Assembly (NCBI GenBank): GCA_039738415.1
Contig: JBCLLY010000001.1
Span: 53,621-117,620, forward strand
Direction of reading: 5' to 3'
Length of the DNA stretch: 64,000 nucleotides
Source: Candidatus Levyibacteriota bacterium
GTDB lineage: Bacteria > Patescibacteriota > Microgenomatia > Levybacterales > GWA1-39-11
Shown here: piece by piece, positions 15,792 through 62,496 of the stretch
Layout of the letters: each line of letters opens with the position of its first letter
Numbering within the stretch: the stretch's first letter is position 1
Program-made: the position numbers and the translations under genes
Notes under the pieces: generated by a model
The model's input: the letters and a program-made list of their open reading frames with translations, nothing else
Told to the model about the DNA's origin: nothing
Database searches by the model: none

Positions 15792-15815
15792 GTATCATAT
15801 ATTAATATATAATAC
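15792..15815. promoter_or_regulatory. 24-bp palindrome GTATCATATATTAATATATAATAC (1 mismatch copy of the recurring operator-like palindrome)
   Basis: Seen at 4 sites (15792, 16254, 60106, 62456). Confidence 0.4.
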
Positions 15816-15855
15816 AATACCCTCAAATACCAAACAACATTCACTAAGCAGTAAA

Positions 15856-16248: not shown

Positions 16249-16253
16249 ATTTC

Positions 16254-16275
16254 TATCATATATTAATATATGATA
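16254..16275. promoter_or_regulatory. perfect palindrome TATCATATATTAATATATGATA immediately upstream of the TrpR-like gene start (candidate operator)
   Basis: Perfect 22-bp inverted repeat 6 bp from the ATG. Confidence 0.45.
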
Positions 16276-16737
16276 TATCGTCAAGCTACTTTAAGTAAAC
16301 AATTATGGAAGAATAGCAATGTACTTAAATGTACTTAAATGTGCTTATAAGAGAATCTCTCCTTGTCTTCCATAAGCCATATATAGAACAAGGTCTTTAA
16401 CTTTCTAAAAATTCGCGTTTTAATATTAAAGACGAGGCGAAAACCAAAATAAAAATTAAGCAGTTTATGATTAAATCTACCCCAACCTTTCTATTGGAAA
16501 ATCTTCAACTACTCGTTTGTGAATTATATATCGATATATAATTCACTGATATAAAAGGCTAATTTGAATATTGACACTCTGGTTGAACACTATTTAAAAG
16601 CTAAAAATCTGCTCTACCACCGGCAGCTTTTATGGAATATGAGGCTAATCTCACTAACATGTTTTTTATTTCTCTCATTGCCTGATCCTGATTTATTTTA
16701 GACATAGGCAGTTCAATTTTGCTATGATATAACCTAA

Positions 16738-17671: not shown

Positions 17672-17760
17672 TCCTAAATCTTAGGTCTTAAGTCTTAGGT
17701 CTCAAGTCTTAGGTCTTAAGTCTTAGGTCTCAAGTCTCAGGTCTTAAGTCTTAGGTCTTG
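17672..17760. repeat. tandem repeat of about 14-bp unit (AGTCTTAGGTCTYA)
   Basis: cttaggtcttaagtcttaggtctcaagtcttaggtcttaag... Related copy at 43600-43625 in reverse orientation. Confidence 0.8.
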
Positions 17761-17783: not shown

Positions 17784-17804
17784 GGTCCCGCTTAGCGGGA
17801 CGAC
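17784..17804. repeat. recurrent hairpin GGTCCCGCTTAGCGGGACGAC (copy 1 of at least 7)
   Basis: Other copies at 21897, 29627, 38578 (TTT-loop variant), 38804, 38861 and 56952. Confidence 0.7.
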
Positions 17805-18161: not shown

Positions 18162-18231
18162 TGGCGGATCACCGCCCTAGCGGGACAAGGTGGTCAATCG
18201 CATCCCGACGTTACGTCGGGGCGCCCGTTTG
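18162..18231 (+). pseudogene. 5' portion of a degenerate tRNA-Tyr-like gene (acceptor and D-arm intact, anticodon arm replaced by TCCCGACGTTACGTCGGGG); ends in 42-bp direct repeat DR1 (18190-18231)
   Basis: GCTGCGATGGCGGA...GTGGTCAATCGCA...CGCCCGTTTG matches tRNA-Tyr(GTA) at 18485 in acceptor, D-loop and variable-arm segments. Confidence 0.45.
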
Positions 18232-18589: not shown

Positions 18590-18660
18590 GTGGTCAATCG
18601 CATCCCGACGTTACGTCGGGGCGCCCGTTTGGGCTACGTTCCGCCAAGGCGGAACTCGCA
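18590..18660 (+). pseudogene. 3' portion of degenerate tRNA-Tyr-like gene (DR2 18590-18631; T-arm replaced by TTCCGCCAAGGCGGAA; acceptor 3' strand CTCGCAGCAC intact)
   Basis: 42-bp near-identical direct repeat of 18190-18231, followed by tRNA-Tyr 3' end. Confidence 0.45.
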
Positions 18661-20579: not shown

Positions 20580-20667
20580 CATGAATTATGAATAATGAAG
20601 TAAGAAGCATGAAGTAGGAATTATGAAGCATGAAGCAGGAAGCATGAAGTATGAATAATGAAGCAGG
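20580..20667. repeat. heptanucleotide tandem array (CATGAAG/TATGAAT units)
   Basis: It fills the whole intergenic spacer and runs into the first codons of the next gene. Confidence 0.8.
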
Positions 20668-21507: not shown

Positions 21508-21633
21508 GAATGCTTCATTCTTCATACTTCATACTTCCTGATTCATGCTTCATTCTTCATACTTCATACTTCCTGATTCATGCTTCATACTTCATGCTTC
21601 CTGCTTCCTGATTCATACTTCATGCTATATATC
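21508..21633. repeat. heptanucleotide tandem array (ATGCTTC/ATACTTC/CTGATTC units; reverse complement of the 20580 array)
   Basis: About 18 units. Confidence 0.85.
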
Positions 21634-21809: not shown

Positions 21810-21881
21810 GCCGTCTTAGCTCAGTGGTAGAGCAGCTGTTTTGTAAACAGCAGGTCTAGGGTTCGAATCCCTAAGACGGCT
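21810..21881 (+). tRNA. tRNA-Thr (anticodon TGT)
   Basis: Acceptor GCCGTCT, D-arm GCTC-AGTGGTA-GAGC, anticodon stem GCTGT/ACAGC with loop UUUGUAA, T-arm TAGGG-TTCGAAT-CCCTA. Confidence 0.85.
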
Positions 21882-21888
21882 CAACAAT

Positions 21889-21944
21889 GTAGAGCATCCC
21901 GCTAAGCGGGACGGGTCGCGAGTTCGAATCTCGCCTCAGGCTCA
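21889..21944 (+). pseudogene. tRNA-like 3' fragment (D-stem 3' half, CCCGCTAAGCGGG hairpin as anticodon arm with TAA triplet, T-arm GCGAG-TTCGAAT-CTCGC, acceptor 3' strand, no 5' half)
   Basis: Read directly; lacks a 5' acceptor partner. Confidence 0.4.
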
Positions 21945-22374: not shown

Positions 22375-22405
22375 TTGACATGAGGTGGGGGGGGGAGTGT
22401 TTAAT
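22375..22405 (+). promoter_or_regulatory. sigma70-like promoter TTGACA-19bp-TTTAAT with a G9 homopolymer (22387-22395) in the spacer
   Basis: The paralogous promoter at 23641 has G5 and a 17-bp spacer. Confidence 0.5.
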
Positions 22406-22414
22406 ATATATTAT

Positions 22415-23527
22415 ATGAGAGTTTTTCTGCCTAAAAGATCAAAGAAATCAATTTCGGTCATAGGGTTGATCGTAGTATTAATAAACCTTATGGTATTACC
22501 TCTTTTTGTAAGTCAAGTTGATGCCGGAACTTTTACCAGCCGTACAGTAACCATCTCTGACTCACGGGCAGGAAACACCGGCACAACGTATGATTTTGCC
22601 TTTACCGTTGTCGCAACCACAGCAATCAAGCAGTGGAACATTAAGTTTTGTACTGTTACAGGAGCCTACGATGACGCTTGCACAACACCAACCGGAATTG
22701 TAACAACCGGCGCAGCCATCGGATCAGACAACGTAACCGGCTCCGGCAGAACTAACACGTTTGGAGGAAACGGTGTTTTACAAACAGTTGTTACCACTCC
22801 TTCTACCCAAAGCCCGACAGGGGTTACTGTTTCTTACACCGGAATCACAAACCCAACAACAGCCGATACCACCTTCTTTGCCCGTATCATTACATATTCA
22901 GATCCGGGAACAACAGAGATTGACAGTGGGACAGTTGCCGCTGCCATTTTAACCTCCACCTCAATTGCCGTAACTGCCGCCATTGACTCAGCGCTTACTT
23001 TTACTGTGGCAGCTGTCAATAGCGGAGGAACCGTCAATGGAGCAACCACCAATATTACCACCACTGCTATCCTCATTCCTTTTGGGACGCTTTCTTCCGG
23101 TTCAACCAAAATTGCCGCTCATGACTTGACAGTGGAAACAAATGCTTCTGGCGGATACACGACCACTGTCAAGGCAACCGCTACTCCACCTTTAGTTAAT
23201 GGCTCAAATAATATTGATGTCTTTACCGGTGCTAATTCAAATCCAACAATTTGGAGTTCACCGGGTGGTACTGCCAACTCTGTTAATACCGGATTCTTTG
23301 GGTATACCACCAATGATGCGACTCTAGGCACAGGCACAGCCGACAGATTTACAGATACGGGTAATGAGTGGGCCGGAACTACCACCTCTCCTTTAGAGGT
23401 TGCCTTTTCCGCAACCGGTGCTTCTTCAGAGACAACAAGGGTAGGCTGGCAAGCTGAGGTTAACAGCATCCAAGCCGCAGGATCATATACCGGAACTGTT
23501 ATTTTAACGACTACGCCAACGTATTAA
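22415..23527 (+). CDS. Thr/Gly-rich secreted surface protein, tandem paralog A (signal peptide; C-terminal ...GSYTGTVILTTTPTY)
   Basis: Start set at ATG MRVFLPKRSKK. The track start GTG 22385 would translate the G tract. About 95% identical to paralog B. Confidence 0.6.
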   Translation: MRVFLPKRSKKSISVIGLIVVLINLMVLPLFVSQVDAGTFTSRTVTISDSRAGNTGTTYDFAFTVVATTAIKQWNIKFCTVTGAYDDACTTPTGIVTTGAAIGSDNVTGSGRTNTFGGNGVLQTVVTTPSTQSPTGVTVSYTGITNPTTADTTFFARIITYSDPGTTEIDSGTVAAAILTSTSIAVTAAIDSALTFTVAAVNSGGTVNGATTNITTTAILIPFGTLSSGSTKIAAHDLTVETNASGGYTTTVKATATPPLVNGSNNIDVFTGANSNPTIWSSPGGTANSVNTGFFGYTTNDATLGTGTADRFTDTGNEWAGTTTSPLEVAFSATGASSETTRVGWQAEVNSIQAAGSYTGTVILTTTPTY

Positions 23528-23640: not shown

Positions 23641-23669
23641 TTGACATGGAGTGAGGGGGAGTGTTTAAT
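23641..23669 (+). promoter_or_regulatory. sigma70-like promoter TTGACA-17bp-TTTAAT with a G5 tract
   Basis: Duplicated with gene B; the same architecture is seen at 49382-49410. Confidence 0.5.
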
Positions 23670-23678
23670 ATATACTAT

Positions 23679-24791
23679 ATGAGAGTTTTTCTGCCTAAAA
23701 GATCAAAGAAATCAATTTTGGCCATAGGGTTGATGGTAGTATTAATAAACCTTATGGTATTACCTCTTTTTGTAGGTAAAGCCAATGCCGACACCCTCAC
23801 AACCCGCAATCTAACCATCTCTGACTCACGGGCAGGAAACACCGGCACAACGTATGATTTTGCCTTTACCGTTGTCGCAACCACAGGAATCAAGCAGTGG
23901 AATATTAAGTTCTGTACTGCTGCGGGAGCCTACGCTGACGCTTGCACAACACCAACCGGAATTGTAACAACCGGCGCAGCCATCGGATCAGACAACGTAA
24001 CCGGCTCCGGCAGAACTAACACGTTTGGAGGAAACGGTGTTTTACAAACAGTTGTTACCACTCCTTCTACCCAAAGCCCGACAGAGGTTACTGTTTCTTA
24101 CACCGGAATCACAAACCCAACAACAACGGATACCACCTTCTTTGCCCGTATCATTACATATTCAGATCCGGGAACAACAGAGATTGACAGTGGGACAGTT
24201 GCCGCTGCCATTCTCACCACCACCTCAATAGCCGTAACTGCCGCCGTTGACCCAGCGCTTACCTTTACTGTAGCTGCTGTCAATTCCGGAACCGTCAATG
24301 GAGCAACCATCAATGTGACGACTTCAACTGCCGTCCTTATTCCTTTTGGGACGCTTTCTTCCGGTTCAACCAAAATTGCCGCTCATGACTTGACAGTGGA
24401 AACAAATGCTTCTGGCGGATACACGACTACTGTCAAGGCAACCGCTACTCCACCTTTAGTTGATGGCTCAAATAATATTGATGTCTTTACCGGTGCTAAT
24501 TCAAATCCAACAATTTGGAGTTCACCGGGTGGTACTGCCAACTCTGTTAATACCGGATTCTTTGGGTATACCACCAATGATGCGACTCTAGGCACAGGCA
24601 CAGCCGACAGATTTACAGATACGGGTAATGAGTGGGCCGGAACTACCACCTCTCCTTTAGAGGTTGCCTTTTCCGCAACCGGTGTTTCTTCAGAGATAAC
24701 AAGGGTAGGCTGGCAGGCTGAGGTCAACAGCATCCAAGCCCCAGGATCATATACCGGAACTGTTATTTTAACGACTACGCCAACATATTAA
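23679..24791 (+). CDS. Thr/Gly-rich secreted surface protein, tandem paralog B
   Basis: 370 aa; tandem duplication unit about 1266 bp. Confidence 0.6.
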   Translation: MRVFLPKRSKKSILAIGLMVVLINLMVLPLFVGKANADTLTTRNLTISDSRAGNTGTTYDFAFTVVATTGIKQWNIKFCTAAGAYADACTTPTGIVTTGAAIGSDNVTGSGRTNTFGGNGVLQTVVTTPSTQSPTEVTVSYTGITNPTTTDTTFFARIITYSDPGTTEIDSGTVAAAILTTTSIAVTAAVDPALTFTVAAVNSGTVNGATINVTTSTAVLIPFGTLSSGSTKIAAHDLTVETNASGGYTTTVKATATPPLVDGSNNIDVFTGANSNPTIWSSPGGTANSVNTGFFGYTTNDATLGTGTADRFTDTGNEWAGTTTSPLEVAFSATGVSSEITRVGWQAEVNSIQAPGSYTGTVILTTTPTY

Positions 24792-25762: not shown

Positions 25763-25786
25763 TACAATCGCGAATTTCGCAGTTGT

Positions 25787-25897
25787 CATTCTGGGGACTC
25801 AGAGCGAAGCGTGGAGGACTCCAGAATCTAATCAGATACGGATTCTGGACACCTGCCCGCAGATGCTGCGCATCAAGCGTTGCAGGCGGGAGCCAGA
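25787..25897. repeat. REP-like palindromic element (GTCATTCTGG...CCAGAATGAC outer inverted repeat with internal CCTGCCCGCA...GCGTTGCAGGCGGG hairpins)
   Basis: Read directly; related copies are dispersed across the window. Confidence 0.7.
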
Positions 25898-25935
25898 ATG
25901 ACGGGGAAGTGCGAAACTTGTAACAATGTTAATTA

Positions 25936-27799: not shown

Positions 27800-27960
27800 G
27801 AGATTGCCACGCTCCATTTCATTCCGCTCGCAATGACAGTAAGTGCGAAAGTTGCCTTTCATAGTCGTCATTGCGATCCGCCAGCTGGCGGATCCTCGCA
27901 ATGACGGGTAAACTCATGATCGCAATGACGAGAGAAGGGAATTGTTTTTTAAAGTCTTGA
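27800..27960. repeat. REP-like cluster (GTCATTGCGA-TCCGCCAGCTGGCGGA-TCCTCGCAATGAC; CGCAATGAC four times)
   Basis: Long perfect inverted repeats. Confidence 0.7.
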
Positions 27961-30759: not shown

Positions 30760-33700
30760 ATGAACAGAGATCAAAAAATAATTGTGATAAGTAAGGCGGC
30801 CAAATTTTTGGGAGTATCTATTGATACGGTGCGCCGCTATGACAAACTGGGCATTCTGCACTCTACCCGCCCCGGCGGTAAAATTCGTTACTTTGATATT
30901 CAAGAATTAAAAGCAGTTAAGTCCTCAAAACCTTTTATCGCTAAATCCCACATGGAAGGAGTCCCGCTTCGCCGCGAGGCGAGCCGGAGGGACTCCTTCC
31001 ATGTGAGAAGAAGGAAAATGGACAGCCAAGTTATTAACGCCATGAATACCTGCGTCACAACTGTCATTCCAGACTTTCTTACCATGAGCCTGTTGAATGA
31101 GATCCGGCATCTACATAAATATTTATGGATTCCCACTTTCGGGGTAATAATAGCACTTTTGCTACTCCTCCTCTTTTCTACACAAGCTCAGCCAGCTACA
31201 GGAACTAACAAACAGATCAATTTTCAGGGAAAAGTTGTTAACATTAATGGTACCAATGTTACCAATGGCAATTATTCATTTGTGTTCAGCTTATATACGG
31301 TTTCCTCCGGCGGATCCGACATCTGGACAGAAACAAAAACACTCACCGTAACAGATGGCATTTTCCGTACAGCTTTAGGATCAACCACTGCTTTTCCCGG
31401 ATCGGTTGACTTTAACACCGATAATATTTACTTGGGGATTAACTTCAACAGTGACGGCGAGATGACTCCAAGAGTCCAGTTCACCGCCGTGCCTCAAGCG
31501 TTTAATGCGTTAAAGGTTGCAGGGCTGACTGTGACTGATACCACCGGCACTTTTACGCTGGCTGATGCCAAAACCTTAACTGTCAGCAACACTTTAACTT
31601 TTGCAGGTACAGACGCCACCTCTTTTACCTTCCCTAGTACTACTGGTGGGACGGTCATAACCAGCAATGCGCCAACCCAATCCATTACCTCAACCCAAAC
31701 ATCAGGTACTGTATTGAGTGTTTCTAACTCCACTGGACTAGAAGCAGCTATTAAAGGTCAAGTCATTACCCTCTCCGGTGCTAACGCTTTTGACCAAACA
31801 GGTCTAGAATTTAACTTATCAGGGGCAACCGGCGCTAACTTAAATGACATTGTGGGTTCTGGCTCCACTTGGAAAGTATCAAAAGCCGGAGTTATAACCG
31901 TTGCATCTTGTACCGGTTGCAGCGGCGGAACTACTTGGAACAACATTACCAACCCAACTGGTACTCAGTCACTCACCTTCGACGATGGAGAACTAACTGC
32001 CTGGACAGTAAACTCAAATACCGAAACTTTCCAGACTATTACCGCAAACTCCCTAACCACAGGTACCGGCCTGTATATCGCTTCATCATCACTCTCATCG
32101 GGTACTCTCATTAACCTTGTTATCACTGGTACAGCTGGACTTACTAACCAAAAAGGTATTAATGTTTCACTCTCTGGCGCTAATGGTGCTGGAGCTCAAA
32201 CTACTTACGGTGGTTACTTTAGCAATACTCACACTGGAACTTCTACCAATGTCGGCCTGTACGCCACAGCCACTGGCGGAACAAACAACTACGCCGCAAT
32301 ATTTGCAGGCGGCAATGTAGGCATCGGCACCACTACTCCGACTGAAAAACTCTCCCTTGCCGGGGGTAACTTCTTACACACTGCCTCAGGTAATCCGACC
32401 TTAAAAGGGACATATGATACGACCGGGAATGCGTATGGAGTATATGTAAGCGGAAAATATGCATATGTTGCAGATGATCTCTCAGGTCTTCAGGTCATTG
32501 ATATAAGTACTCCTTCTAGCCCCACGCTTGTCGGGACATATAATACCAGCGGGAATGCGTATGGAGTATATGTAAGCGGAAAATATGCGTATGTTGCAGA
32601 TGATGGCTCAGGTCTTCAGGTGATTGATATAAGTACTCCTTCTAACCCCACGCTTGTTGGGACATATGATACGAGTGGGCTTGCGCGGGAAGTATATGTA
32701 AGCGGAAAATATGCGTATGTTGCAGATTATGACTCAGGGCTTCAGGTGATTGATATAAGTACTCCATCTGCCCCCACGCTTGTTGGGACATACGATACGA
32801 GCGGGGAGGCGTATGGAGTATATGTAAGCGGAAAATATGCATATGTTGCAGATGTTGCCTCAGGTCTTCAGGTGATTGATATAAGCGTACCATCTAGCCC
32901 CACGCTTGTCGGGACATATAATACGAGTGGGCTTGCGCGGGGAGTATATGTAAGCGGAAAATATGCGTATGTTGCAGATCAGACCTCAGGTCTTCAGGTA
33001 ATTGATATAAGTACTCCTTCTAGCCCTACGCTTGTCGGGACATATAATACGAGCGGGGATGCGTACGGAGTATATGTAAGCGGAAAATATGCGTATGTTG
33101 CAGATATTGGGCCAGGTCTTCAGGTGATTGATATAAGTACTCCTTCTAGCCCCACGCTTGTTGGGACATATAATACGAGCGATCTTGCGTGGGGAGTATA
33201 TGTAAGCGGAAAATATGCGTATGTTGCAGATGGTGCCTCAGGTCTTCAGGTGATTGATATAAATGGCATCGAAACACCTTCACTTTATGCAGGAAATATA
33301 GCCACAAATGACCTTACAGTTACAGAAAATGCCGATATCGCCAACAACTTGTCTATCGGAAATGGCCTCAATGTCGGGTCTGGCGGAATATTCTCAGCAG
33401 GAACCATCGCCCTTGTCTCAACAGATGTTAGCAATTCCCTGATCATTACAGCAAACTCGGTGACTACAGCAACGAGTATCAAAGTTAATACTACCGGACT
33501 TACTACTGGCAATGCTTTGGAAATTCTGGGCCCCTCCTCAACCAACCTTCTGACTATCGGAAGAACAAATCAGGGCTTTCTTGATTTTGCCAGAGTATCC
33601 ATTGGAACCTCTCAACAGCGCGATCAACTTCATGTTCAAGGCCGCATCAATACCACATGGGATTGGATAGATGAAAGTTTCCTTGGCTCAATTGCAGGAG

Positions 33701-36144
33701 GTGGTGCGGCCACTGCAGTAACAGCTGATACTCTCGTACGTAGTTTTGTAATGGATGAGATAACCGAATGTGGTTGGCGTTTACAGCAGTCAACGGGTTT
33801 TTCTGCCATTCAAGCTCGTGCCGGAGATGCCGCCGCCACCGCCAATGATGGTTGTCGCACAGGCTCTGGAGGTCTTGTTGGTCTTCGCAAGAATGAAAAC
33901 CCGGTAATGGAAACCAAGGTTACGATGGACAGCACCGCCGAACATATTGTCAGAATCGGCTTTACCAGTGATGCGGCCGGCGCGGCTATTCAAACCGAGC
34001 CGGTTGACGGTGTCTTCTTCCGCAAAACAGCAGCGCAAACCAACTGGTTCTGCGTTACCCGGGCCACCAACACCGAAACTGCTGTTGATTCTGCCACCGC
34101 GATTTCCGCTAGCGGAACTTTCCAAACTCTTAGGATTGAGATTGAAAATACCGCCGACGACGGAGCAAGATTCTTCATTAATGGCACCTCAGTCTGCAGC
34201 AGTCCGATCTTGACTAACATTCCGACCGCCAATCTTGGTTGGGGTAACGCAAATGCTGAAACCAATATAACTGTCAAAAACCTATCTACCGATTACATAA
34301 AAGTCTGGCAAGACGCGCCACCAGAAGGAGCCGGAGCCTCCGCGCAAGCAACTGAGGCAGCGCCACAGGCTGCAGATATGATTGAGAGTGCCGATGTAGC
34401 GGAGTTTTATCTTGGTGACCCGACAATTCTTGTGCCAGGAACAGTCGTCAGTCTAAAAGATCCAACTAATTCTAATGAAACACGACCTAGTGTTGAAAAA
34501 TCACAAAGGGCGTACGATCCTAGAGCGTTAGGTGTAGTCTCAACCTCCCCCGGATTGACTTTGGGTAATCCCGGAGATGAAAAGGCTGTTGAGGTTGCTT
34601 TGGCGGGAAGAGTACCAGTTAAGGTATCAACTGAAAATGGACCGATTAGGGCGGGAGATTTATTAACTTCTTCTTCCCAGCTAGGAGTGGCGATGAAAGC
34701 CACCAAAGCCGGTCGGATTATTGGGCAGGCCTTGACTTCATATGCAGGAGAAGAGATCGGCACCGTACTGATGTTTATTCATAATTCGTATTCACAGGGA
34801 TCAAAATTAGCGGATATTTTGCCGGGGTTAACTTCCACCTCCGAGGAGTCAGAGCCCACCTCGGAGGTGTCTCTGGGCAAGCTTGCGCTGGCCCAGTTTG
34901 TTGCCGAGAGAGAGCAGTTGGCGCAAGCGGTGGATTTATCAGAAATAGTTACCGATAGAGTAAGCGCTGGACTTGAGGTGATTACGCTAAAACTTATCGC
35001 TTCGGAAGTTAATCTTGACAGTATTTCAGCGGCAACAGGAGAAGATATTGCCCTTAATCTAACAAGCAATGGTAAGTTTATAATCAAAGATGAAGAGGGA
35101 CAGACTGCCATAAGTTTTGATAGCCAAGGAAATGCATTCTTTAAAGGAACTGTATCAGCAGACAAAGTTAAAGCAAACCAGATAGAAGGGTTGGAGATAT
35201 TTACCAATAAATTGGCAAGCTTGAGTCAGCAAGTGGTCCAACTTCGCCAAGGCTTCGATGGACAAGCAGGAATTGCAACATCATCTGCTGTCATTCTGGG
35301 GACGAGTGAAACGAGGACACCAGAATCAGGATTCTTGACAAGCCAGAATGACCCCTCGACTACGCTCGGGGCAGGCAATATAGTTACCCTTGGTAACATC
35401 ATATTTAAGAGTGGAAAAGTTACCCTCGACCTCACAGTTTTGGGCAGACTTGAAACACAGGGATGGCTAGTAGTGGGTGGCCCAGCTGAGTTTAAAGCTC
35501 CTACCCTATTTGAAGCACTGGTTACATTTGTTCAAAATGTGATTTTTAGAGGTGATGTCAGTTTCCTTGGGAACGTAAAATATCTTTCAGATATAACGTT
35601 CCAAGGTCGACCAACCTTTAACAAAGACACCGCAGGCTTTGCCGTTATTTACAAAGACGCCGACACAGTAGAAGTTGTGTTTGAAAAAGAGTACGCCCAG
35701 ATCCCCCTGGTTAATATAAGTATTACTTTAGATGACTTATGTCATCCTGAACTTGATTCAGGATCTCAAGATTCTTTGGCTACGCCTCAAAATGACAATG
35801 AATGTAAAACCAAACAAGAGACACTTGAGCAAGCCATATTGAGTGGAGATATCCGATATATTGTTACAAAACGAACAACAAAAGGATTCATTATAAAAAT
35901 TAATAAAGTTGCACCAGATGATGTAAAGTTTTCCTGGAGTGCCTTATCTGTAAAAGATGCAAAGACGTTTCAGTCTGTCATTCTGGGGACGAGTGAAATG
36001 AGGACGCCAGAATCTGATTCTGGACAAGCCGGAATGACGGCGTCAAACCCTACGCCTACACCTACTTCTACACCGGAAGCTTCCCCTTCAGCTACTTTAT
36101 CAGATACTCCATCAGCTATCCCAACAAGCACAGCAACTCCTTGA
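30760..36144 (+). CDS. giant cell-surface protein with eight LVIVD repeats (beta-propeller) and Thr-rich regions; N-terminal excisionase-type HTH is probably fused
   Basis: Eight units of ...GNAYGVYVSGKYAYVADD.SGLQVIDISTPSSPTLVGTY... (LVIVD repeat). Signal-anchor IPTFGVIIALLLLLLFSTQA lies after residue about 125. It carries at least four in-frame palindromic-element insertions. Real start may be about 31018. Confidence 0.6.
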   Translation: MNRDQKIIVISKAAKFLGVSIDTVRRYDKLGILHSTRPGGKIRYFDIQELKAVKSSKPFIAKSHMEGVPLRREASRRDSFHVRRRKMDSQVINAMNTCVTTVIPDFLTMSLLNEIRHLHKYLWIPTFGVIIALLLLLLFSTQAQPATGTNKQINFQGKVVNINGTNVTNGNYSFVFSLYTVSSGGSDIWTETKTLTVTDGIFRTALGSTTAFPGSVDFNTDNIYLGINFNSDGEMTPRVQFTAVPQAFNALKVAGLTVTDTTGTFTLADAKTLTVSNTLTFAGTDATSFTFPSTTGGTVITSNAPTQSITSTQTSGTVLSVSNSTGLEAAIKGQVITLSGANAFDQTGLEFNLSGATGANLNDIVGSGSTWKVSKAGVITVASCTGCSGGTTWNNITNPTGTQSLTFDDGELTAWTVNSNTETFQTITANSLTTGTGLYIASSSLSSGTLINLVITGTAGLTNQKGINVSLSGANGAGAQTTYGGYFSNTHTGTSTNVGLYATATGGTNNYAAIFAGGNVGIGTTTPTEKLSLAGGNFLHTASGNPTLKGTYDTTGNAYGVYVSGKYAYVADDLSGLQVIDISTPSSPTLVGTYNTSGNAYGVYVSGKYAYVADDGSGLQVIDISTPSNPTLVGTYDTSGLAREVYVSGKYAYVADYDSGLQVIDISTPSAPTLVGTYDTSGEAYGVYVSGKYAYVADVASGLQVIDISVPSSPTLVGTYNTSGLARGVYVSGKYAYVADQTSGLQVIDISTPSSPTLVGTYNTSGDAYGVYVSGKYAYVADIGPGLQVIDISTPSSPTLVGTYNTSDLAWGVYVSGKYAYVADGASGLQVIDINGIETPSLYAGNIATNDLTVTENADIANNLSIGNGLNVGSGGIFSAGTIALVSTDVSNSLIITANSVTTATSIKVNTTGLTTGNALEILGPSSTNLLTIGRTNQGFLDFARVSIGTSQQRDQLHVQGRINTTWDWIDESFLGSIAGGGAATAVTADTLVRSFVMDEITECGWRLQQSTGFSAIQARAGDAAATANDGCRTGSGGLVGLRKNENPVMETKVTMDSTAEHIVRIGFTSDAAGAAIQTEPVDGVFFRKTAAQTNWFCVTRATNTETAVDSATAISASGTFQTLRIEIENTADDGARFFINGTSVCSSPILTNIPTANLGWGNANAETNITVKNLSTDYIKVWQDAPPEGAGASAQATEAAPQAADMIESADVAEFYLGDPTILVPGTVVSLKDPTNSNETRPSVEKSQRAYDPRALGVVSTSPGLTLGNPGDEKAVEVALAGRVPVKVSTENGPIRAGDLLTSSSQLGVAMKATKAGRIIGQALTSYAGEEIGTVLMFIHNSYSQGSKLADILPGLTSTSEESEPTSEVSLGKLALAQFVAEREQLAQAVDLSEIVTDRVSAGLEVITLKLIASEVNLDSISAATGEDIALNLTSNGKFIIKDEEGQTAISFDSQGNAFFKGTVSADKVKANQIEGLEIFTNKLASLSQQVVQLRQGFDGQAGIATSSAVILGTSETRTPESGFLTSQNDPSTTLGAGNIVTLGNIIFKSGKVTLDLTVLGRLETQGWLVVGGPAEFKAPTLFEALVTFVQNVIFRGDVSFLGNVKYLSDITFQGRPTFNKDTAGFAVIYKDADTVEVVFEKEYAQIPLVNISITLDDLCHPELDSGSQDSLATPQNDNECKTKQETLEQAILSGDIRYIVTKRTTKGFIIKINKVAPDDVKFSWSALSVKDAKTFQSVILGTSEMRTPESDSGQAGMTASNPTPTPTSTPEASPSATLSDTPSAIPTSTATP
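30949..31005. repeat. 57-bp palindromic element translated in frame (CACATGGAAGGAGTCCC...GGGACTCCTTCCATGTG)
   Basis: Perfect 17-bp inverted repeat arms; 57 nt is 19 codons. Confidence 0.7.
35290..35352. repeat. 63-bp REP-like element (GTCATTCTGG...CCAGAATGAC) translated in frame (VILGTSETRTPESGFLTSQND)
   Basis: Same element family as 25787, 49232 and 56805. Confidence 0.75.
35741..35765. repeat. GTCATCCTGAA-CTTGA-TTCAGGATC hairpin inside the giant ORF
   Basis: Identical half-element to the start of the 42913 element. Confidence 0.6.
35977..36038. repeat. second REP-like element translated in frame (VILGTSEMRTPESDSGQAGMT)
   Basis: Near-identical to 35290-35352. Confidence 0.75.
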
Positions 36145-38640: not shown

Positions 38641-38803
38641 TCCACCCCCCTAAGCACAGCAAATGCACTTATTCGAGTGAATTTATGGAAATATTCTACC
38701 ACAAAAGAGGCAAATAGTCAGATATACCTCCGAAGTGTATCAGGTAGGACACATCGGGATAAATTGAAATTGTAAAATTAAATTGAGCCAAAAGGTCCCG
38801 CTA

Positions 38804-38881
38804 AGCGGGACGACTTACTCTTTATCCCAGTACAAATCGTGCTTACCCATGTGAGCCAACGGTCCCGCTAAGCGGGACGAC
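38804..38881. repeat. two tandem copies of GGTCCCGCTAAGCGGGACGACTT(A/G)CTCTTTA
   Basis: 38804-38824 and 38861-38881. Confidence 0.7.
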
Positions 38882-41246: not shown

Positions 41247-41296
41247 TATACTAGATACTAGATACTAGATACTAGATACTAGATACTAGATACCCT
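41247..41296. repeat. (ATACTAG)n heptamer array immediately upstream of uppP
   Basis: Seven perfect units ending 2 bp before the ATG. Confidence 0.85.
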
Positions 41297-42080: not shown

Positions 42081-42158
42081 GTTAGATAAACAAACCAAAT
42101 CCTTAATTCATGATTCTTTATTCTTAATTCTTTCTTTGTTGTGTTATAATCGCCTCAA

Positions 42159-42806
42159 ATGCCGTCACGTTACGTTTTAAGAGATTTCAAACAAAACGAA
42201 TACTATCACGTCCTAAACTACGGCGTGGACAAACGCAACATCTTCGGGGACGAGGAAGACTTCCGGACTTTTCTCTACTATCTCAAAGTCTACCTTTTAC
42301 CCAAAAGTACAATTGAGGAGAAAATGCCAAATCTGCCCAAAAGAATGCTTTCTAAAAATAGAAATAGTGAAGTTGAGATAATCGCATATACTTTAATGCC
42401 AAATCATTTTCATTTGCTTTTACGTGAAAAAGAGCTGGGAGGAATTTCACTTTTTATGAAACAACTATCCAATGCCTACACTAAGTACTTCAATGAACGT
42501 CATACCCGGTCAGGAAGCCTCTTCGAGGGTCCTTTTAAGGCAGCAAACGTAAAAAGTGAGGATATAACTCAAGTAGTACGATACATTCACCTAAATTCTT
42601 TTCTGGCAGGCATTGTAGACGATCCTGAAAAATACCGCTGGTCGGATTTCCCGACTTATACTAATTCAAAGGAAGTAAATATTTCAAATACAAAGGTCGT
42701 AATCTCACGCTTCAACACTCCGGCAGATTACAAGCATTTCGTGCACAACTACATGGATTATGCTGAAAAGGTGAAAACTCTCGACCACATTCTGATAGAT
42801 AACTAA
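42159..42806 (+). CDS. IS200/IS605-like Y1 (HUH) transposase, RAYT-like (REP-associated tyrosine transposase)
   Basis: HUH motif MPNHFHLLL and catalytic-Tyr block VVRYIHLNSFLAGIV. Its 215-aa length fits RAYTs better than minimal IS200 TnpA. TATAAT at 42147. Confidence 0.7.
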   Translation: MPSRYVLRDFKQNEYYHVLNYGVDKRNIFGDEEDFRTFLYYLKVYLLPKSTIEEKMPNLPKRMLSKNRNSEVEIIAYTLMPNHFHLLLREKELGGISLFMKQLSNAYTKYFNERHTRSGSLFEGPFKAANVKSEDITQVVRYIHLNSFLAGIVDDPEKYRWSDFPTYTNSKEVNISNTKVVISRFNTPADYKHFVHNYMDYAEKVKTLDHILIDN

Positions 42807-42854
42807 TTAGTTGGCAGGAATAGAATTTAGGAGATAGTTCCAATGTGAGGTGGA

Positions 42855-43020
42855 TTTAAACACGAGTTTCGCACTTCATTAAAAGATAGGCATACTTTAT
42901 CAAACACCTTTGTCATCCTGAACTTGATTCAGGATCCAAAATAGATTCCGGATCAAGCTCGCCTCGCTGAGGCTTCGTCGAAGCGGGTCCGGAATGACAA
43001 GTGAGAAACTCGTGTTAAAA
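42855..43020. mobile_element. MITE-like non-autonomous element with 16-bp terminal inverted repeats (TTTAAACACGAGTTTC / GAAACTCGTGTTAAAA) enclosing a GTCATCCTGAA...CCGGAATGACAAG REP unit; flanked by 16-bp direct repeats TAGTTGGCAGGAATAG (42808 and 43082)
   Basis: Read directly; lies immediately downstream of the RAYT stop. Confidence 0.55.
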
Positions 43021-43198
43021 AGACTTTTTGGGAAAAACTGTTTATCTCAACTACTCCTACTCCTAATAACTATTAACTAGCTAGTTGGCAGGAATAGGAG
43101 CTGGAAGATAGTTTACGAAATGAATTATTGTTAACAAATGGTTTTTGGGGTTACGCTCAAACTACTCCTACTCCTACTCCTAACAACTAAATCCTAAG

Positions 43199-43411
43199 CT
43201 ATATTTCCGTTTTCATCTGAATTCCTAGAAGATAATAAATCGCTTCTTTTTTATATCGTCTGTCACCTCTGGAGTTTATACGTATTGCAGGCAACTTTCC
43301 TCTTTTGCCCCATCTTTTTATAGTTAGGGGAGAAACTCTAAGCAACTCGGCAACCTCCCGTACTGTAAGAAGATCTGGTAAATCTGCTATTGATATCTTT
43401 TGATTACTCAT
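43199..43411 (-). CDS. excisionase-family helix-turn-helix DNA-binding protein
   Basis: LLTVREVAELLRVSPLTIKRWGKRGKLPAIRI matches the Xis/MerR-type HTH. Confidence 0.55.
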   Translation of the reverse strand: MSNQKISIADLPDLLTVREVAELLRVSPLTIKRWGKRGKLPAIRINSRGDRRYKKEAIYYLLGIQMKTEI

Positions 43412-46410: not shown

Positions 46411-46468
46411 CTACTCCTACTCCTACTCCTACTCCTACTCCTACTCCTACTCCTACTCCTACTCCTAA
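46411..46468. repeat. (TACTCC)n hexamer array abutting the start codon of the minus-strand gene at 46408
   Basis: About 9.5 units. Confidence 0.85.
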
Positions 46469-46570
46469 TTAACTATATCCCAATACTACTTTTATGTATC
46501 ATTTTTAGCTTGTTTATATTCACTATATCACTTCGATTGCATGATGGCAATCGATGATGGTATATGTCAA

Positions 46571-46703
46571 ATGATGAAGACTGAATGATGAATCATGAAT
46601 AATGGATCATGAATCATGAATACTGAATGATGAATCATGAATAATGAATCATGAATACTGAATAATGGATACTCTATACTGAATACTGGATACTGAAATG
46701 AAA
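46571..46703. repeat. heptamer tandem array (TGAATCA/TGAATAA/TGAATAC units)
   Basis: Same family as the arrays at 20580, 21508, 48974, 52066 and 58255. Confidence 0.8.
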
Positions 46704-48973: not shown

Positions 48974-49165
48974 AGTATTCAGTATTCAGTATTCAGTATT
49001 CAGTATTCAGTATTTAGTATTCAGTATCCATGATTCATTATTCATGATTCATTATTCATTATTCAGTCTTCAGTATTCATGATTCATTATTCATGATTCA
49101 TGATTCATTATTCAGTATTCATGATTCATTATTCATGATTCAGTCTTCACCATCCACCATCTACA
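48974..49165. repeat. heptamer tandem array (ATTCAGT/ATTCATG/ATTCATT), about 27 units
   Basis: Read directly. Confidence 0.85.
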
Positions 49166-49231: not shown

Positions 49232-49310
49232 GTCATTCTGGAGGAAACGCAGTGACCGATAGAATCTAAAGATTCTGTAGAGATCCTGAAATAAATTCAG
49301 GATGACGAGG
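49232..49310. repeat. REP-like element (GTCATTCTGG...TTCAGGATGAC); the reverse complement of the copy at 52522-52600
   Basis: Near-identical inverted copies sit upstream of the paralogous genes 49422 and 52684. Confidence 0.75.
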
Positions 49311-49381
49311 GGGGTTTTTAGGATGACTACATCAATTATCTATCTTCCCTCTTCCCTCTTCCCTAATACCCAATAATGTGC

Positions 49382-52065: not shown

Positions 52066-52318
52066 AGTATTCAGTATTCAGTATTCAGTATTCAGTATTC
52101 ATGATTCAGTATTCATGATTCATTATTCAGTCTTAAGTATTCAGTATTCAGTATTCAGTCATCAGTCTTCAGTCTTCAGTATTCATGATTCATGATTCAT
52201 GATTCAGTCTTCAGTATTCATGATTCATGATTCATGATTCAGTCTTCAGTATTCATGATTCATTATTCATGATTCATTATTCATTATTCATGATTCATTA
52301 TTCAGTATTGAGTCTTAA
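52066..52318. repeat. heptamer tandem array, about 36 units
   Basis: Read directly. Confidence 0.85.
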
Positions 52319-52444: not shown

Positions 52445-52600
52445 ATAAGTCATCCTGAACCCCCCCCGTCATCCTGAAAACTCCTCTCGTCATCCTGAAC
52501 CCCCCCCGTCATCCTGAATTTATTTCAGGATCTCTACAGAATTTTTAGATTCTATCGGCTCTTCGAGCCTCCAGAATGACAACGGTGAAGTCGTCAGCTA
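52445..52600. repeat. REP-like cluster: four tandem CGTCATCCTGAA units followed by a full GTCATCCTGAA...CCAGAATGAC element
   Basis: Read directly. The spacing is too short and the units too small for a CRISPR array. Confidence 0.7.
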
Positions 52601-55987: not shown

Positions 55988-56100
55988 ACATTAGGTTAGC
56001 ACCTAATAGTATTTAGTATCAAGTATGGGGATATGGAGCCGCTTTGATAAGACTTTATACTACTTGATTTATTTCAATACATTGATACAATTGTATTGTA

Positions 56101-56336
56101 TGAGTAACTATGTAGTAACCAATATTAGACTTGCCGAAGAGGACTATTTGAGACTAAAGGAGGAAGCGGCAAGAGGAAGAAAAAGTTTTTCAGCTGTTAT
56201 CAGAGAGAAAATATCGATTAGAAAAGCCGATGATAACTATGCAGCAAAACTGTTGTCTGTAAGTGGTAATTGGTTTGATAAGTCTGAATATGATGCAAAT
56301 AGAACAGAACTTGATAAAAGGCTATCCTTTTCATGA
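56101..56336 (+). CDS. vapB: VapB-type antitoxin (ribbon-helix-helix-like)
   Basis: Small ORF overlapping vapC by 4 bp (ATGA). The perfect 12-bp palindrome ATACAATTGTAT sits at the start, a candidate operator. Start set at ATG MSNYVV. Confidence 0.45.
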
Positions 56337-56725
56337 AAAAAATACTGCTCGATACTTCAATCATCATAGATTTTCTCAGAAGAAAAGATAAAGAACATAG
56401 TCTTTTTTATGCTTTTGCAAAAATTAACACTCAATTTTATACTTCAATTATTACTCATTCAGAACTATATGCAGGTAAAAGTGTATGGACTGATACACAA
56501 GCACCAAAAGATCTTGAGTCTATATTTTCAGGGATTGAGCTGCTCCCTTTGCAGGAAAAAGTTTCAAAAAAAGCAGGTGAAATAAAAGCTACCACTGGTC
56601 TTGATCTCATTGATTCAATTATTGCAGCTACTGCAATAACAGCAAGTCTTCCTCTTCTTACCCTAAACATTAAGGATTTTAGAAAGGTTAAAGAACTTAT
56701 ACTTGAACTTCACCCAACTCTGTAA
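56333..56725 (+). CDS. vapC: PIN-domain toxin VapC
   Basis: MKKILLDTSIIIDFL... with PIN acidic residues; 130 aa. Confidence 0.7.
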   Translation: MKKILLDTSIIIDFLRRKDKEHSLFYAFAKINTQFYTSIITHSELYAGKSVWTDTQAPKDLESIFSGIELLPLQEKVSKKAGEIKATTGLDLIDSIIAATAITASLPLLTLNIKDFRKVKELILELHPTL

Positions 56726-57026
56726 TCATAAAACCAAAAAAACTCATGGCAAACGGAGTCGAAGAAATCTTCATTTTTCGAGGAAAGTCCGATAACTATT
56801 TCATAATGTCATTCTGGCGTAGACCAGAATCTATTTCCAAAACTGAACTCTATTCCCTTTTACTTATTCTCTATTACCTATCTGGGGTGTGGTGCCCCCG
56901 CCTTGTCCTTTCGGACGCGGCGGGGACGGATTTGAAAACGTGCCCTCCTTCGTCCCGCTAAGCGGGACTATGGCGGGCTAAGCAGGTCATGCGGCATTTG
57001 CCCCGCTTTCCGAGGCGTGCTTGGCT

Positions 57027-57242
57027 CTATAACGAGCCGGATGCTTTGGATCCGAACTGCTCAACCTGAACTTTTCCATACTCGCGAAGGTGTCTTGGCT
57101 TGAGTTTGCCTTTTTCAAGCAATATAGCAAGCTTTTTCAAGTCCCTTCTGAGCTGAAACGGACAAGTTCCGGATGCCCGCGTAGGGAGTTCACCAGGGCG
57201 GACTTCCAACGATTGAACCACAGAAGTTTTCTGGGCGTTCAT
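57027..57242 (-). CDS. hypothetical small protein in GC-rich islet
   Basis: 71-aa ORF; flanked by the repeat GCCCCGCTTTCCGRGGCGTGCTTG. Confidence 0.25.
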   Translation of the reverse strand: MNAQKTSVVQSLEVRPGELPTRASGTCPFQLRRDLKKLAILLEKGKLKPRHLREYGKVQVEQFGSKASGSL

Positions 57243-57361
57243 GGTATTTCCTCCTTCTAGCCTTTCCAGGCACTTGTACCCTTCGGCGAGCCTCAGGGTT
57301 TGGGTGTGAATCTAGGCTTTTTAGGGGTTCAACCCATAATAGGGGTTGAACCCCTATATTG

Positions 57362-57661
57362 TCACCGCTGATCTAGTGGGGCAGCGTAACCTCTCAAGTC
57401 GGCACCATCTATAAAGATGCTTTCAAGATTAAGCCTTGCTTTTAAAAGCCGCTCACGGACTTCATCGGAATTATCCTTTTCGGAGGCAGCAAGCGCAGCC
57501 AAATACCCGATAATGGCCTTCTGAAGCTTGCGCTTCTCTGCTTTTGCTTTCACTGCTTGATACAACCGAAAATTCGGCAAAACCTCACCAAGATCGATAC
57601 GCGCTAGGAGTTGTCGGCGAATCTCCTCACGATATTCTTCAGATGACTTACTGGTTGCCAT
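57362..57661 (-). CDS. hypothetical small protein in GC-rich islet
   Basis: 99-aa ORF; same flanking repeat upstream (57680-57702). Confidence 0.3.
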   Translation of the reverse strand: MATSKSSEEYREEIRRQLLARIDLGEVLPNFRLYQAVKAKAEKRKLQKAIIGYLAALAASEKDNSDEVRERLLKARLNLESIFIDGADLRGYAAPLDQR

Positions 57662-58254
57662 TGGATCTCCCTTTCTTGCCCCGCTTTCCGGGGCGTGCTT
57701 GTATCCTTCATTGAGCTCAGGATTTGGGCGTGAACTTCGAAAGTGTTGGCAGGGTTCAACCCTGTCACTTATGGAGTGGGTTCGCTCTTTTGAAGCTTTT
57801 GCTTGATGTTATCGATAACCATGCTTCCCACTATGGGAATACACGCTATGAAAACGGTAAGGACTGCTCCGAGAAAAAGGAAAGCTCCCCCTACCTTGCG
57901 AACGATTTGCACCTACGCCTCCTCATGTGTGATTGCGGTTTTACCCGAAATTGTGAAGTTAAAAATTACTAGTTACTAGAATCCAGTTACTAGTCTGACC
58001 TGCGTATTTTCAAGGAGCTTCACTTCTTTCGAAGTGACGCAGACCCGTCAAAATCGCTCTTTAAGGCGTGTATGAATAATACCTGAAGCCTTCAAGTAAG
58101 ATATGTCGGGTCAATGTGCTGCCTAGCGCAGCCAACAGAAACGCAAGCAATCCGCCGATGAGGCGGAGCGAAGTTGACCGCCTAAGCGATTACGCAAATT
58201 ATACTCCCGGAAAGCAATAAATTCAAACTATGGGTTAAGTTTATGCTAGAGGCT

Positions 58255-58380
58255 AGATACTGAATACTGGATACTGAATAATGAATAATGAATAATGAAT
58301 AATGGATACTGAATAATGAATAATGAATACTGAATACTGAATACTGAATACTCTATACTGAATAATGAATACTAGATACT
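58255..58380. repeat. heptamer tandem array (ATACTGA/ATAATGA units)
   Basis: Read directly. Confidence 0.85.
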
Positions 58381-60105: not shown

Positions 60106-60129
60106 ATCTCCATGTGTATCATATATTAA
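60106..60129. promoter_or_regulatory. perfect 24-bp palindrome GTATCATATATTAATATATGATAC (operator-like), 58 bp upstream of the next CDS
   Basis: Identical copy at 62456-62479. Confidence 0.45.
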
Positions 60130-60187
60130 TATATGATACAGAATAACTAACAACTACTGCTTAGCCAATTTGTTATAATAAATTATT

Positions 60188-62369: not shown

Positions 62370-62455
62370 ACGTAATTTAGTCAGTACGTACTTATATAAG
62401 ATATAACGGAACCCCTTTTACTTTTACTACCTAAAGACTTAACAAATCTTACCCC

Positions 62456-62479
62456 GTATCATATATTAATATATGATAC
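62456..62479. promoter_or_regulatory. perfect 24-bp palindrome GTATCATATATTAATATATGATAC between convergent genes
   Basis: Identical to the copy at 60106-60129. Confidence 0.4.
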
Positions 62480-62496
62480 ACGGTAATCCAAACGGA

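Follow-up and report, generated by a model that had tools for sequence, protein, structure and literature searches.

A RAYT-like Y1 HUH gene, the palindromes that bracket its relatives, and TGTC-tagged repeats in a Levyibacteriota genome

Background

According to Quentin et al. 2018 (PMC6006769), the motif Y---NP is the signature of the class-2, TnpA_REP-like Y1 transposases, as opposed to the Y---Q of the insertion sequence (IS) IS200. In the same study the classical transposases associated with repetitive extragenic palindromes (REPs), the REP-associated tyrosine transposases (RAYTs), are 150-165 amino acids (aa) long and subclass 2.1 (Bertels group 1) has a median of 238 aa; subclass 2.1 has the signature NH[YF]H, Y[IV]HLNP and an SS tail and is reported without REPs, and subclass 2.4 has intragenic REPs (PMC6006769). 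Subclass 2.1 is probably the same as the TIRYTs of Di Nocera et al. Highly repeated flanking extragenic 16-mers are a RAYT criterion of Bertels 2017 (analysis 4; PMC5581495). Here we compare with these systems a RAYT-like Y1 gene and the palindromic repeats around it in a stretch of 64,000 nucleotides (nt) of a Candidatus Levyibacteriota genome (contig JBCLLY010000001.1, positions 53,621 to 117,620), the whole of which we call the window.

The REPs tagged with CGTC are a second described system (PMC3733652). Their tag is often TGTC, and behind it come a stem of 8-9 bp that starts from AT, with a loop of 4-5 nt, and a CCA or CTA tail. They occur mostly as dimers, some units are intragenic and some dimers are nested in longer palindromes; the CGTC/TGTC superfamily includes Rickettsia RPE-4 and RPE-6 and Neisseria dRS3, and these REPs seem to have no transposase of their own (PMC3733652). 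Our reading of the window, which we hold to be probable, is that its Y1 gene encodes a RAYT-like domesticated enzyme of a clade whose genes are bracketed by palindromes, that the bracket was lost here, and that the TGTC-tagged repeats are unrelated to the gene.

Protein class and fold

42159..42806, + strand: Y1 HUH gene (class-2 TnpA_Y1, RAYT-like), 215 aa, from the open reading frame (ORF) call

The original prediction, made from the letters of the window, had described a 215-aa RAYT-type protein with an HUH motif NHFHLLL and a catalytic-Tyr block RYIHLN. Both motifs were located, PNHFHLLL at aa 81-88 (HUH = H83-F-H85) and RYIHLN at aa 141-146, with the presumed catalytic tyrosine, Y142, in RYIHLNS and a proximal tail YRWSDF behind it. 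In the profile comparison that had been proposed as a check, the only Pfam match was to Y1_Tnp (43 bits, cut-off 23), and a C-terminal domain resembling a helix-turn-helix (HTH; Bac_DnaA_C, HTH_23 or HTH_28) was not detected. The NCBIfam equivalog model REP_Tyr_transpos (NF047646) gave 47 bits, below its cut-off of 80, and the IS200 model (NF033573) 14 bits against a cut-off of 55. REP_Tyr_transpos was matched by 19/19 aligned family members (best E = 1.3e-17) and IS200 by one, where members were judged by E<=0.01 and the cut-off of REP_Tyr_transpos was compared for the window protein only. The family alignment is invariant at YH.xN.G, MPNHFH, G.L..G, RYIHL and a Y.WS tail. At the tyrosine, where the consensus of the family reads RYIHLNP, the window protein keeps the N and replaces P by S (YIHLNS); the orthologs at loci L002 and L005 have P and A, respectively, and Q never occurs.

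The AlphaFold2 model of the protein (mean predicted local distance difference test score 89.6, predicted template modelling score 0.88) had as its top match in a fold search of the PDB the Escherichia coli TnpA_REP bound to a REP hairpin (4ER8, E = 3e-6), and the TnpA proteins of IS608 and ISDra2 ranked lower. A sequence profile search also reached ISDra2 TnpA and 4ER8. The profile and fold searches were needed, since a search of the PDB with the single sequence gave only marginal matches (E ~0.7). No tnpB lies next to the gene, the neighbours of which are BacA/UppP upstream and an HTH_17 gene downstream.

Because the tyrosine motif is of the Y---N(P) class, REP_Tyr_transpos outscores IS200 (47 to 14 bits) and 4ER8 is the top fold match, we place the protein among the Y1 HUH enzymes on the RAYT side (class-2 TnpA_Y1) and not with the TnpA of IS200/IS605. 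The idea of a RAYT-type protein therefore stands as far as motif class, fold and relative score are concerned, and falls short at the cut-off of the RAYT model; an ordinary IS200/IS605 TnpA accompanied by TnpB, which had been named as the finding that would speak against it, is not what we see, as there is neither a TnpB nor a Y---Q. With TnpA_REP (4ER8; class 2, PMC6006769) the protein has in common the Y1 HUH fold, an HUH motif and a Y---N(P) block that holds one catalytic Tyr. It differs from that system in its sub-cut-off score and in the missing GT[AG]G tag; neither the window nor the brackets of relatives showed a family of GTAG-tagged hairpins. With the TnpA of IS200/IS605 (IS608, ISDra2; subclass 1.1) it shares the fold and, to judge from these homologs, probably the HUH/Tyr chemistry, but it has no Y---Q, a low IS200 score, no TnpB and an extra C-terminal tail of ~65 aa, and it is not multi-copy.

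The motifs of the clade appear to resemble those of subclass 2.1, as judged by comparison with the published table rather than by a phylogeny. NH[YF]H, F/W-[EQ], Y[IV]HLNP and a proximal tail with a conserved Ser (WSS; WSD in the window protein) are shared, there are no REPs beside the window gene, and the length is above that of classical RAYTs. Unlike subclass 2.1, the window protein is shorter than the median of 238 aa and has no C-terminal HTH-like domain in Pfam, and many of its relatives are bracketed by palindromes, of which the subclass is reported to have none. The TIRYT model, with GGGGWSAS terminal inverted repeats, was rejected, as the best gene-spanning pairs, one of 22 nt (77%) and one of 16 nt (88%), were weak, at chance level and without the motif.

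Palindrome brackets in the family

A first homolog search found >1,000 homologs, nearly all of 205-230 aa, with each cluster on 1-2 contigs, and an exhaustive profile search found 3,489 clusters at 50% identity (E<=1e-30). Records named by organism are mostly from Patescibacteria (Curtiss-, Davies-, Levy-, Shapiro-, Beckwith- and Woesebacteria, Saccharibacteria, Parcubacteria), although some titles of metagenome-assembled genomes differ. A RAYT/REPIN system in a small AT-rich genome, possibly of the candidate phyla radiation, had been predicted to be unusual; RAYT-like genes, to judge by these numbers from a single clade, are nothing unusual among Patescibacteria.

In 24/72 homolog genes the same perfect palindrome is found on both sides, compared with 0/718 control ORFs; the scan covered 150 nt on each side of the 72 homologs with full flanks, and the controls were ORFs of >=150 aa from the same loci. 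The palindromes are member-specific and perfect, with stems of 7-15 bp, loops usually of 3 nt and, often, GGT-N3-ACC tips. The upstream copy is found 23-75 nt ahead of the ATG, with a TTGACA box immediately 3' of it, and the downstream one 1-45 nt past the stop; the two copies are direct in 17 cases and inverted in 5. Examples are as follows.

Locus L010: GATTACACCC[CAA]GGGTGTAATC
Locus L013: TTCCACCC[GCC]GGGTGGAA
Locus L048 (complete Beckwithbacteria genome): ATCACACAC[CCG]GTGTGTGAT
Locus L015, a nested doublet: ACAAGGTTCGACCTT[GTGC]AAGGTCGAACCTTGT

Related Y1 proteins have related palindromes, that is, hairpin and protein co-vary. Further copies were found in ~10 loci, mostly intergenic (7/11 cases) and some with a conserved 5' flank. 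In nine loci the Y1 coding sequence also contains an in-frame copy of the gene's own bracket palindrome, placed in a variable loop at either of two fixed sites.

Just after the Y motif, ~aa 157: L051, L053, L059, L040, L064, L080
At ~aa 52-61: L061, L065, L034

Such in-frame copies are reminiscent of subclass 2.4 with its intragenic REPs, and their constant position, as third copies, suggests a role in self-regulation or self-targeting. In a metagenome set that is more distant and partly fragmentary, 5/46 Y1 genes were bracketed, which is a weak confirmation. Some brackets of relatives contain ATTCC…GGAAT, as do the stems of the TGTC-tagged REPs discussed below; we rejected a kinship between the two as superficial, the brackets having no GTC tag.

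The huge Patescibacteria Y1 clade has a REPtron-like organisation, with a bracket that co-varies with the protein as in RAYT systems, although in the relatives, unlike those systems, the palindromes are perfect, their loops mostly have 3 nt and the copies are usually direct, not inverted. Our search of the literature on RAYT or IS200-like genes in Patescibacteria or the candidate phyla radiation returned nothing relevant; we found no paper that describes this arrangement there, and we regard the unreported organisation as the part most worth following up. The clade that shows these bracket palindromes has subclass-2.1-like motifs, and subclass 2.1 was reported to be without REPs.

Copy number, neighbourhood and constraint

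42142..42150, + strand: TGTTATAAT, extended -10 promoter-like element read from the sequence, ending 8 nt before the ATG of the Y1 gene
43199..43411, - strand: HTH_17/MerR-like gene, 70 aa, convergent with Y1, Pfam HTH_17 42 bits, a clade-conserved neighbour

No second or degraded Y1 copy was found in the 64-kb window, including the surroundings of the hairpins near 57.3 kb, where the small ORFs have no Pfam match. The order BacA - Y1 - HTH_17 - WecG - MreB is kept, with small variations, in eight species-level relatives (79-86% identity), and the Y1-HTH_17 pair are the most constant neighbours in the clade. The HTH_17 product is 91-93% identical and adjacent to Y1 in L002-L006 and also adjacent in L088, L089, L094 and L099; in L089 the packing is tight, with Y1 starting 38 nt after BacA and ending 32 nt before HTH_17. 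The spacer upstream of the window gene, as in the ortholog L099, is built of heptamer-like repeats followed by TGTTATAAT, and TGYTATAAT occupies the same position in L002, L005, L088, L089, L094, L097 and L099. This element may be a promoter from which a short-leader or leaderless Y1 mRNA would be made. In the same loci Y1 is more conserved than UppP or WecG. The nonsynonymous divergence (dN) is 0.10-0.20 and the synonymous divergence (dS) is saturated in 9/10 pairs, so that dN/dS, which is 0.04 in the sole computable pair, is a bound only. Outside the close clade the synteny of Y1 is lost, and two genomes each hold a pair of Y1 paralogs with different hairpins, the identity within the pairs being only 50% and 67%.

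A single-copy, syntenic gene under strong purifying selection is the pattern of a domesticated transposase. In its evolution the window gene behaves like the RAYTs described by Bertels et al. (PMC5581495) and unlike an active IS: its copy number is low, its inheritance is vertical at short range and its positions are scattered at long range. We also considered that the gene might be an ordinary IS of the IS200/IS605 type, or a decaying remnant that has lost its ends and persists by chance. The layout seen in relatives, with mostly direct hairpins around one small gene and the upstream one 5' of a TTGACA box, is IS200-like in that a unit of one gene has a hairpin at each end, mostly on one strand, and the loss of synteny implies that the unit has moved over long time scales. 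This explanation is nevertheless extremely unlikely in our view, given a Y---N(P) motif where Y---Q would be expected, the low score with the IS200 model, the lack of an adjacent tnpB, a single copy with same-genome paralogs of only 50-67% identity, the dispersed solo hairpins of relatives, and a gene that is intact and constrained at a fixed locus in eight species-level relatives.

Ultra-small genomes of ~1 Mb are under strong pressure to shed selfish DNA. Because genomes of this size tend to lose such DNA, a RAYT-like gene that is conserved and constrained, has no REPs and stays at one locus lends itself well to testing the idea that a host function keeps RAYTs in place.

The lost bracket and candidate cognate hairpins

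57318..57357, no strand: REPIN-like doublet (a REPIN being a REP doublet), TTAGGGGTTCAACCC-ATAATAG-GGGTTGAACCCCTA, 14-bp hairpin, -15.6 kcal/mol, z = -6.1

No bracket palindrome was found at the window gene or its close relatives (eight orthologous loci). In the nearest outgroups (44-46% identity; L008, L009, L091, L093), AGGGGT-N3-ACCCCT palindromes or doublets of them bracket the Y1 gene or precede it. The bracket has been lost in the lineage of the window. The doublet at 57318-57357 is nearly identical to the upstream doublet of L009, AGGGGTTCAACCCC[TGAA]GGGGTTGAACCCCT, and of the same type as the brackets of L008 and L091; a related hairpin lies at 57745-57765. We tentatively take this doublet as the best candidate for a cognate REP in this genome. 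A cognate population of GGT-N3-ACC hairpins in the window was rejected, since there are 3 of them where 0.72 would be expected and shuffles give up to 5, which is no significant enrichment. In L005/L098, TTGACAGGGT[TCG]ACCCTGTCAA is found at -326 with a second copy at +7.9 kb, and a TTCGCCA[AC]TGGCGAA hairpin, like the TCCGCCAGCTGGCGGA family of the window, occupies the canonical position at -72.

The doublet is part of a GC-richer stretch (56900-57980) that follows a VapB/VapC-like pair (56025-56725; PIN domain 65 bits). Three short ORFs on the minus strand, of 47, 99 and 71 aa and without a Pfam match, lie in this stretch and are separated by hairpins, namely GGCAGGGT[TCA]ACCCTGTC, the doublet TAGGGGTTCAACCC…GGGTTGAACCCCTA and GCCCCGCTTTCCGRGGCGTGCTTG, which is repeated. 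Hairpins of this type bracket Y1 in related genomes, but are found here around unrelated small genes.

These hairpins bear on a second explanation, in which the protein is an active RAYT, its cognate REPs or REPINs (the AGGGGTTSAACCCCT doublet type at 57318-57357, or the TCCGCCAGCTGGCGGA family) lie elsewhere, and only the proximal copies were lost. In its favour, the doublet of the window hardly differs from the one that brackets a 44%-identical homolog in L009, hairpins are found at -326, +7.9 kb and -72 in L005/L098, TCCGCCAGCTGGCGGA has 4 copies in 64 kb with 0 expected, and the protein is strongly constrained. We think it unlikely, because copy numbers in 64 kb are very low and GGT-N3-ACC hairpins are not enriched, the candidate types vary among close relatives, and no insertion polymorphism was observed for either hairpin type. 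Moreover, three of the four TCCGCCAGCTGGCGGA palindromes (those at 27878, 49180 and 52651, the fourth being at 43511), with TCCGCCA arms, lie within 70 nt of a TGTC/CGTC element, and one of them forms the loop of the CGTC unit 27867-27905. As these copies adjoin or sit in TGTC/CGTC elements, the hairpin families look like mosaics and not like independent populations.

TGTC-tagged repeats and their relation to the gene

The original prediction had also described several families of dispersed palindromes. They are real and well above chance: GTCATYCTGR has 15 matches in the window against 0.40 expected, a number reached in 0/100 shuffles, CCCGCTWAGCGGG has 6 matches with 0 expected, and CCGCCARCTGGCGG is found at 4 loci (27878, 43511, 49180, 52651) with 0 expected. 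Some details of the lists did not hold. The sites 17990 and 18641, which had been assigned to the CCGCCAGCTGGCGG family, do not belong to it even at 2 mismatches, and a long palindrome reported at two sites is complete (29 nt) at 37040, with only one arm and the loop near 43627. Rfam found five tRNAs in the window and no RNA family for any repeat. The TGTC-tagged units are the following.

GTCATYCTGR sites: 25785, 25893, 35290, 35343, 35741, 35977, 42912, 49232, 49297, 52449-52508, 52571, 56808
25785..25902, no strand: dimer E1, outer stem of 10-11 bp GTCATTCTGG/CCAGAATGAC, z = -3.65
42911..42998, + strand: dimer E5, GTCATCCTGAA…GGAATGAC, 106 nt past the Y1 stop
Other members of the TGTC family: 27867-27905, 35290-35352, 35741-35795, 35977-36038, 49232-49306, 52449-52580, 56808-56833
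Example unit at 42912: tgtcATCCTGAA[CTTGA]TTCAGGATcca
Example unit at 49306 and 52508: cgtcATCCTGAA[TTTAT]TTCAGGATctc

The stems vary (ATTCTGG…CCAGAAT, ATTGCGA…TCGCAAT), and a unit usually has an inverted partner that ends in …GAATGAC(A). Folded as single-stranded DNA, the dimers give either a pair of hairpins or a single long one that GTCATTCTGG/CCAGAATGAC closes. By their sequence features the units appear to belong to the superfamily of CGTC/TGTC-tagged REPs that Di Nocera et al. described in 2013. They have its tag, the 8-9 bp stem starting with AT, the 4-5 nt loop and the CCA or CTA tail, and they likewise form inverted dimers, occur in frame inside genes, are nested in longer palindromes and have no linked transposase. 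The differences are that some units have long loops of 19-26 nt, which are themselves structured, that there are tandem half-site arrays at 52449-52518, and that the host, one of the Patescibacteria, is outside the five phyla of PMC3733652. Three dimers (35290-35352, 35741-35795, 35977-36038) lie within the C-terminal part of an ORF of 1794 aa (30760-36144) and keep its frame, translating as VILGTSETRTPESGFLTSQND, CHPELDSGSQDSLATPQND and VILGTSEMRTPESDSGQAGMT; they may be compared with the Rickettsia palindromic elements, which they resemble. CGTC/TGTC-tagged REP dimers are common in these reduced genomes, including in frame inside a giant surface-protein gene.

The half-site array at 52449-52518 has four tandem left half-sites GTCATCCTGAA, spaced by C8 or AACTCCTCTC and followed by a full TGTC hairpin. 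A mirror-image case, …TTCAGGATGAC GAGGGGGGTTTT TAGGATGAC, is found at 49296-49327, at the end of the 49232-49306 element. These arrays look like the outcome of repeated breakage and rejoining, or of slippage, at the tag.

The dimer nearest the gene lies in a composite region downstream of it.

42800..43190, + strand: two tandem ~110-nt modules, 42800-43073 (interrupted by the insertion) and 43074-43190
42855..43020, no strand: lineage-specific 166-bp insertion resembling a miniature inverted-repeat transposable element, with 22-nt inverted repeats (core AAGTGCGAAACTCGTG), carrying the TGTC-tagged REP dimer

Each module opens with TTAGTTGGCAGGAATAG and closes with the imperfectly complementary CTACTCCTAAYAACTA; the modules share direct repeats D1 (40 nt, 83%) and D2 (22 nt, 95%) and contain the inverted pairs I1 and I4. 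A similar module is present downstream of the ortholog in L088 and missing from L089. The element bounded by inverted repeats and containing a REP unit that had been predicted downstream of the gene was found, with repeats of 22 nt that are 91% complementary (pair I2, 42855-42876 and 42999-43020). AAGTGCGAAACTCGTG-type inverted repeats also bound the dimer at 25769-25922, and the motif has 5 matches with 0.83 expected. Inside the insertion, the left unit of E5 reads TGTC-ATCCTGAA-[CTTGA]-TTCAGGAT-CCA and the right unit is inverted and ends in ...GGTCCGGAATGACA; as single-stranded DNA E5 forms two hairpins (-19.8 kcal/mol, z = -3.6).

The 16-bp direct repeats that had been described as flanking this element are indeed present as two exact copies of TAGTTGGCAGGAATAG, the only ones in the window (42808, 43082). 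We rejected them as a target-site duplication, because they are inside the 40-nt direct repeats at the start of the two tandem modules, 15 and 53 nt outside the ends of the inverted repeats and not abutting them; they are part of the ~110-nt duplication and not a footprint of transposition. The 166-bp insertion is absent from all orthologous intergenic regions (L002, L005/L098, L088, L089, L094, L097, L099). The dimer adjoins the Y1 gene by chance, through insertion of the 166-bp element into a duplicated 3' intergenic module.

The original prediction had made the dispersed REP family the partner of the transposase, so that the Y1 gene would be the RAYT of a REPIN system of GTCATCCTGAA…GGAATGAC dimers and the downstream copy part of a REPtron. 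Several facts invite this explanation: one dimer lies 106 nt past the stop codon, the family is enriched in the window (15 matches against 0.4 expected), its inverted dimers fold into long hairpins as REPINs do, and the CGTC superfamily is without an assigned transposase, so the role is vacant (PMC3733652). The partnership is not borne out by the genomic data. There is no hairpin or TGTC unit upstream of the window gene, and the sole downstream unit sits in the insertion that is missing from all eight orthologous loci. Across 80 homologous loci (1.2 Mb) there are ~37 TGTC/CGTC units, mostly inverted dimers 60-110 nt apart, and 0 of them lie within 500 nt of a Y1 gene, where ~2.4 would be expected by chance; every sampled locus contains a Y1 gene by construction. 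The flanking 16-mer test in the 64-kb window was negative, in contrast to RAYTs with their abundant flanking 16-mers and REPs: all upstream 16-mers are unique, and downstream only a simple (CTCCTA)n repeat recurs. Family members are bracketed by another type of palindrome, and CGTC-type REPs in Proteobacteria, Bacteroidetes and other phyla occur without adjacent tyrosine transposases (PMC3733652). We consider a REPIN system of this kind very unlikely. Because there is no adjacency in 80 loci and the insertion is missing from orthologous sites, we conclude that the Y1 gene and the TGTC repeats do not form a functional pair.

The Patescibacteria Y1 clade could also be the missing trans-acting enzyme of the CGTC/TGTC-tagged REPs, acting at a distance, with the window as a case of rare linkage. 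This we find barely plausible, since the units are not enriched near 80 Y1 genes and the relatives have a different bracket palindrome.

Proposed mechanism

In our reading the window protein is a RAYT-like HUH enzyme, of a Patescibacteria clade with proteins of ~215 aa, that would nick and join single-strand DNA. By analogy with TnpA_REP and IS608 TnpA, it may bind a hairpin on single-stranded DNA, for example on the lagging-strand template, and homology suggests that it cleaves beside the hairpin through Y142, which would form a 5'-phosphotyrosine, and that the metal is coordinated by H83 and H85. In the bracketed relatives the gene and its promoter, between palindromes, form a REPtron-like unit, and what the enzyme would process or mobilise there is either the palindromes or the unit as a whole. 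In the window lineage, with the gene-proximal sites gone, it may act in trans on rare dispersed hairpins or have taken on a host task. The likeliest substrates in this genome would be trans-located AGGGGT-N3-ACCCCT hairpins such as that at 57318-57357.

Several points weigh against the reading of a domesticated RAYT-like enzyme that has lost its bracket and is unrelated to the TGTC units. The score of the window protein with the RAYT equivalog model is below the cut-off, and a Ser replaces the Pro of the family's Y---NP. Identity to solved structures, the homologs from which cleavage chemistry and substrate are taken, is ~14%. The GGT-N3-ACC hairpins of the window are not significantly enriched and cluster in one odd 1-kb region, and the hairpin at the canonical -72 position in L005/L098 is of the other type, like TCCGCCAGCTGGCGGA. 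The repeat census covers 64 kb of the genome. Finally, an enzyme that acts in trans need not adjoin its substrates, so the missing adjacency weakens a link to the TGTC units without severing it.

Other sequence features of the window

Many intergenic regions contain tandem arrays of 7-nt units (TCTTAGG, ATGCTTC, ATACTAG, TATTCAT and others) in up to 35 copies, and a perfect (CTACTC)x9.5 hexamer array lies at 46411-46467. The most over-represented words of the window are those within the heptamer and hexamer arrays.

Heptamer arrays: 17679-17759, 20581-20663, 21510-21626, 41248-41293, 46570-46697, 48976-49142, 52066-52313, 58257-58373

Hairpins of the form GTCCCGC[TWA]GCGGGAC with conserved flanks (…GACGACYTRSTCTTTATCCCAG) are found at 17785-17801, 38795-38811, 38862-38878 and 21896-21912. 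Such hairpins lie 30-60 nt past the 3' ends of two tRNA-Thr genes, and one comes directly after the tRNA-Thr at 21810-21882 and is followed by the T-arm-like GGGTCGCGAGTTCGAATC. Another hairpin, CCCGACG[TTA]CGTCGGG, occurs twice around a tRNA-Tyr (18204-18220, 18604-18620). The tRNA-adjacent hairpins may be processing or terminator signals, or tRNA-derived repeats. An AT-rich palindrome of 26-28 nt, TGTATCATATATTAATATATGATACA, is found at five intergenic sites (15789-15816, 16250-16277, 16518-16545, 60113-60140, 62453-62480) and looks like the operator of a dimeric regulator. There is also a tandem gene duplication, 22385-23527 and 23661-24791, of two ORFs of ~380 aa that are 90-98% identical over the compared stretches, and a 126-bp unit is repeated 6.8 times inside the giant ORF, at 32407-33262.

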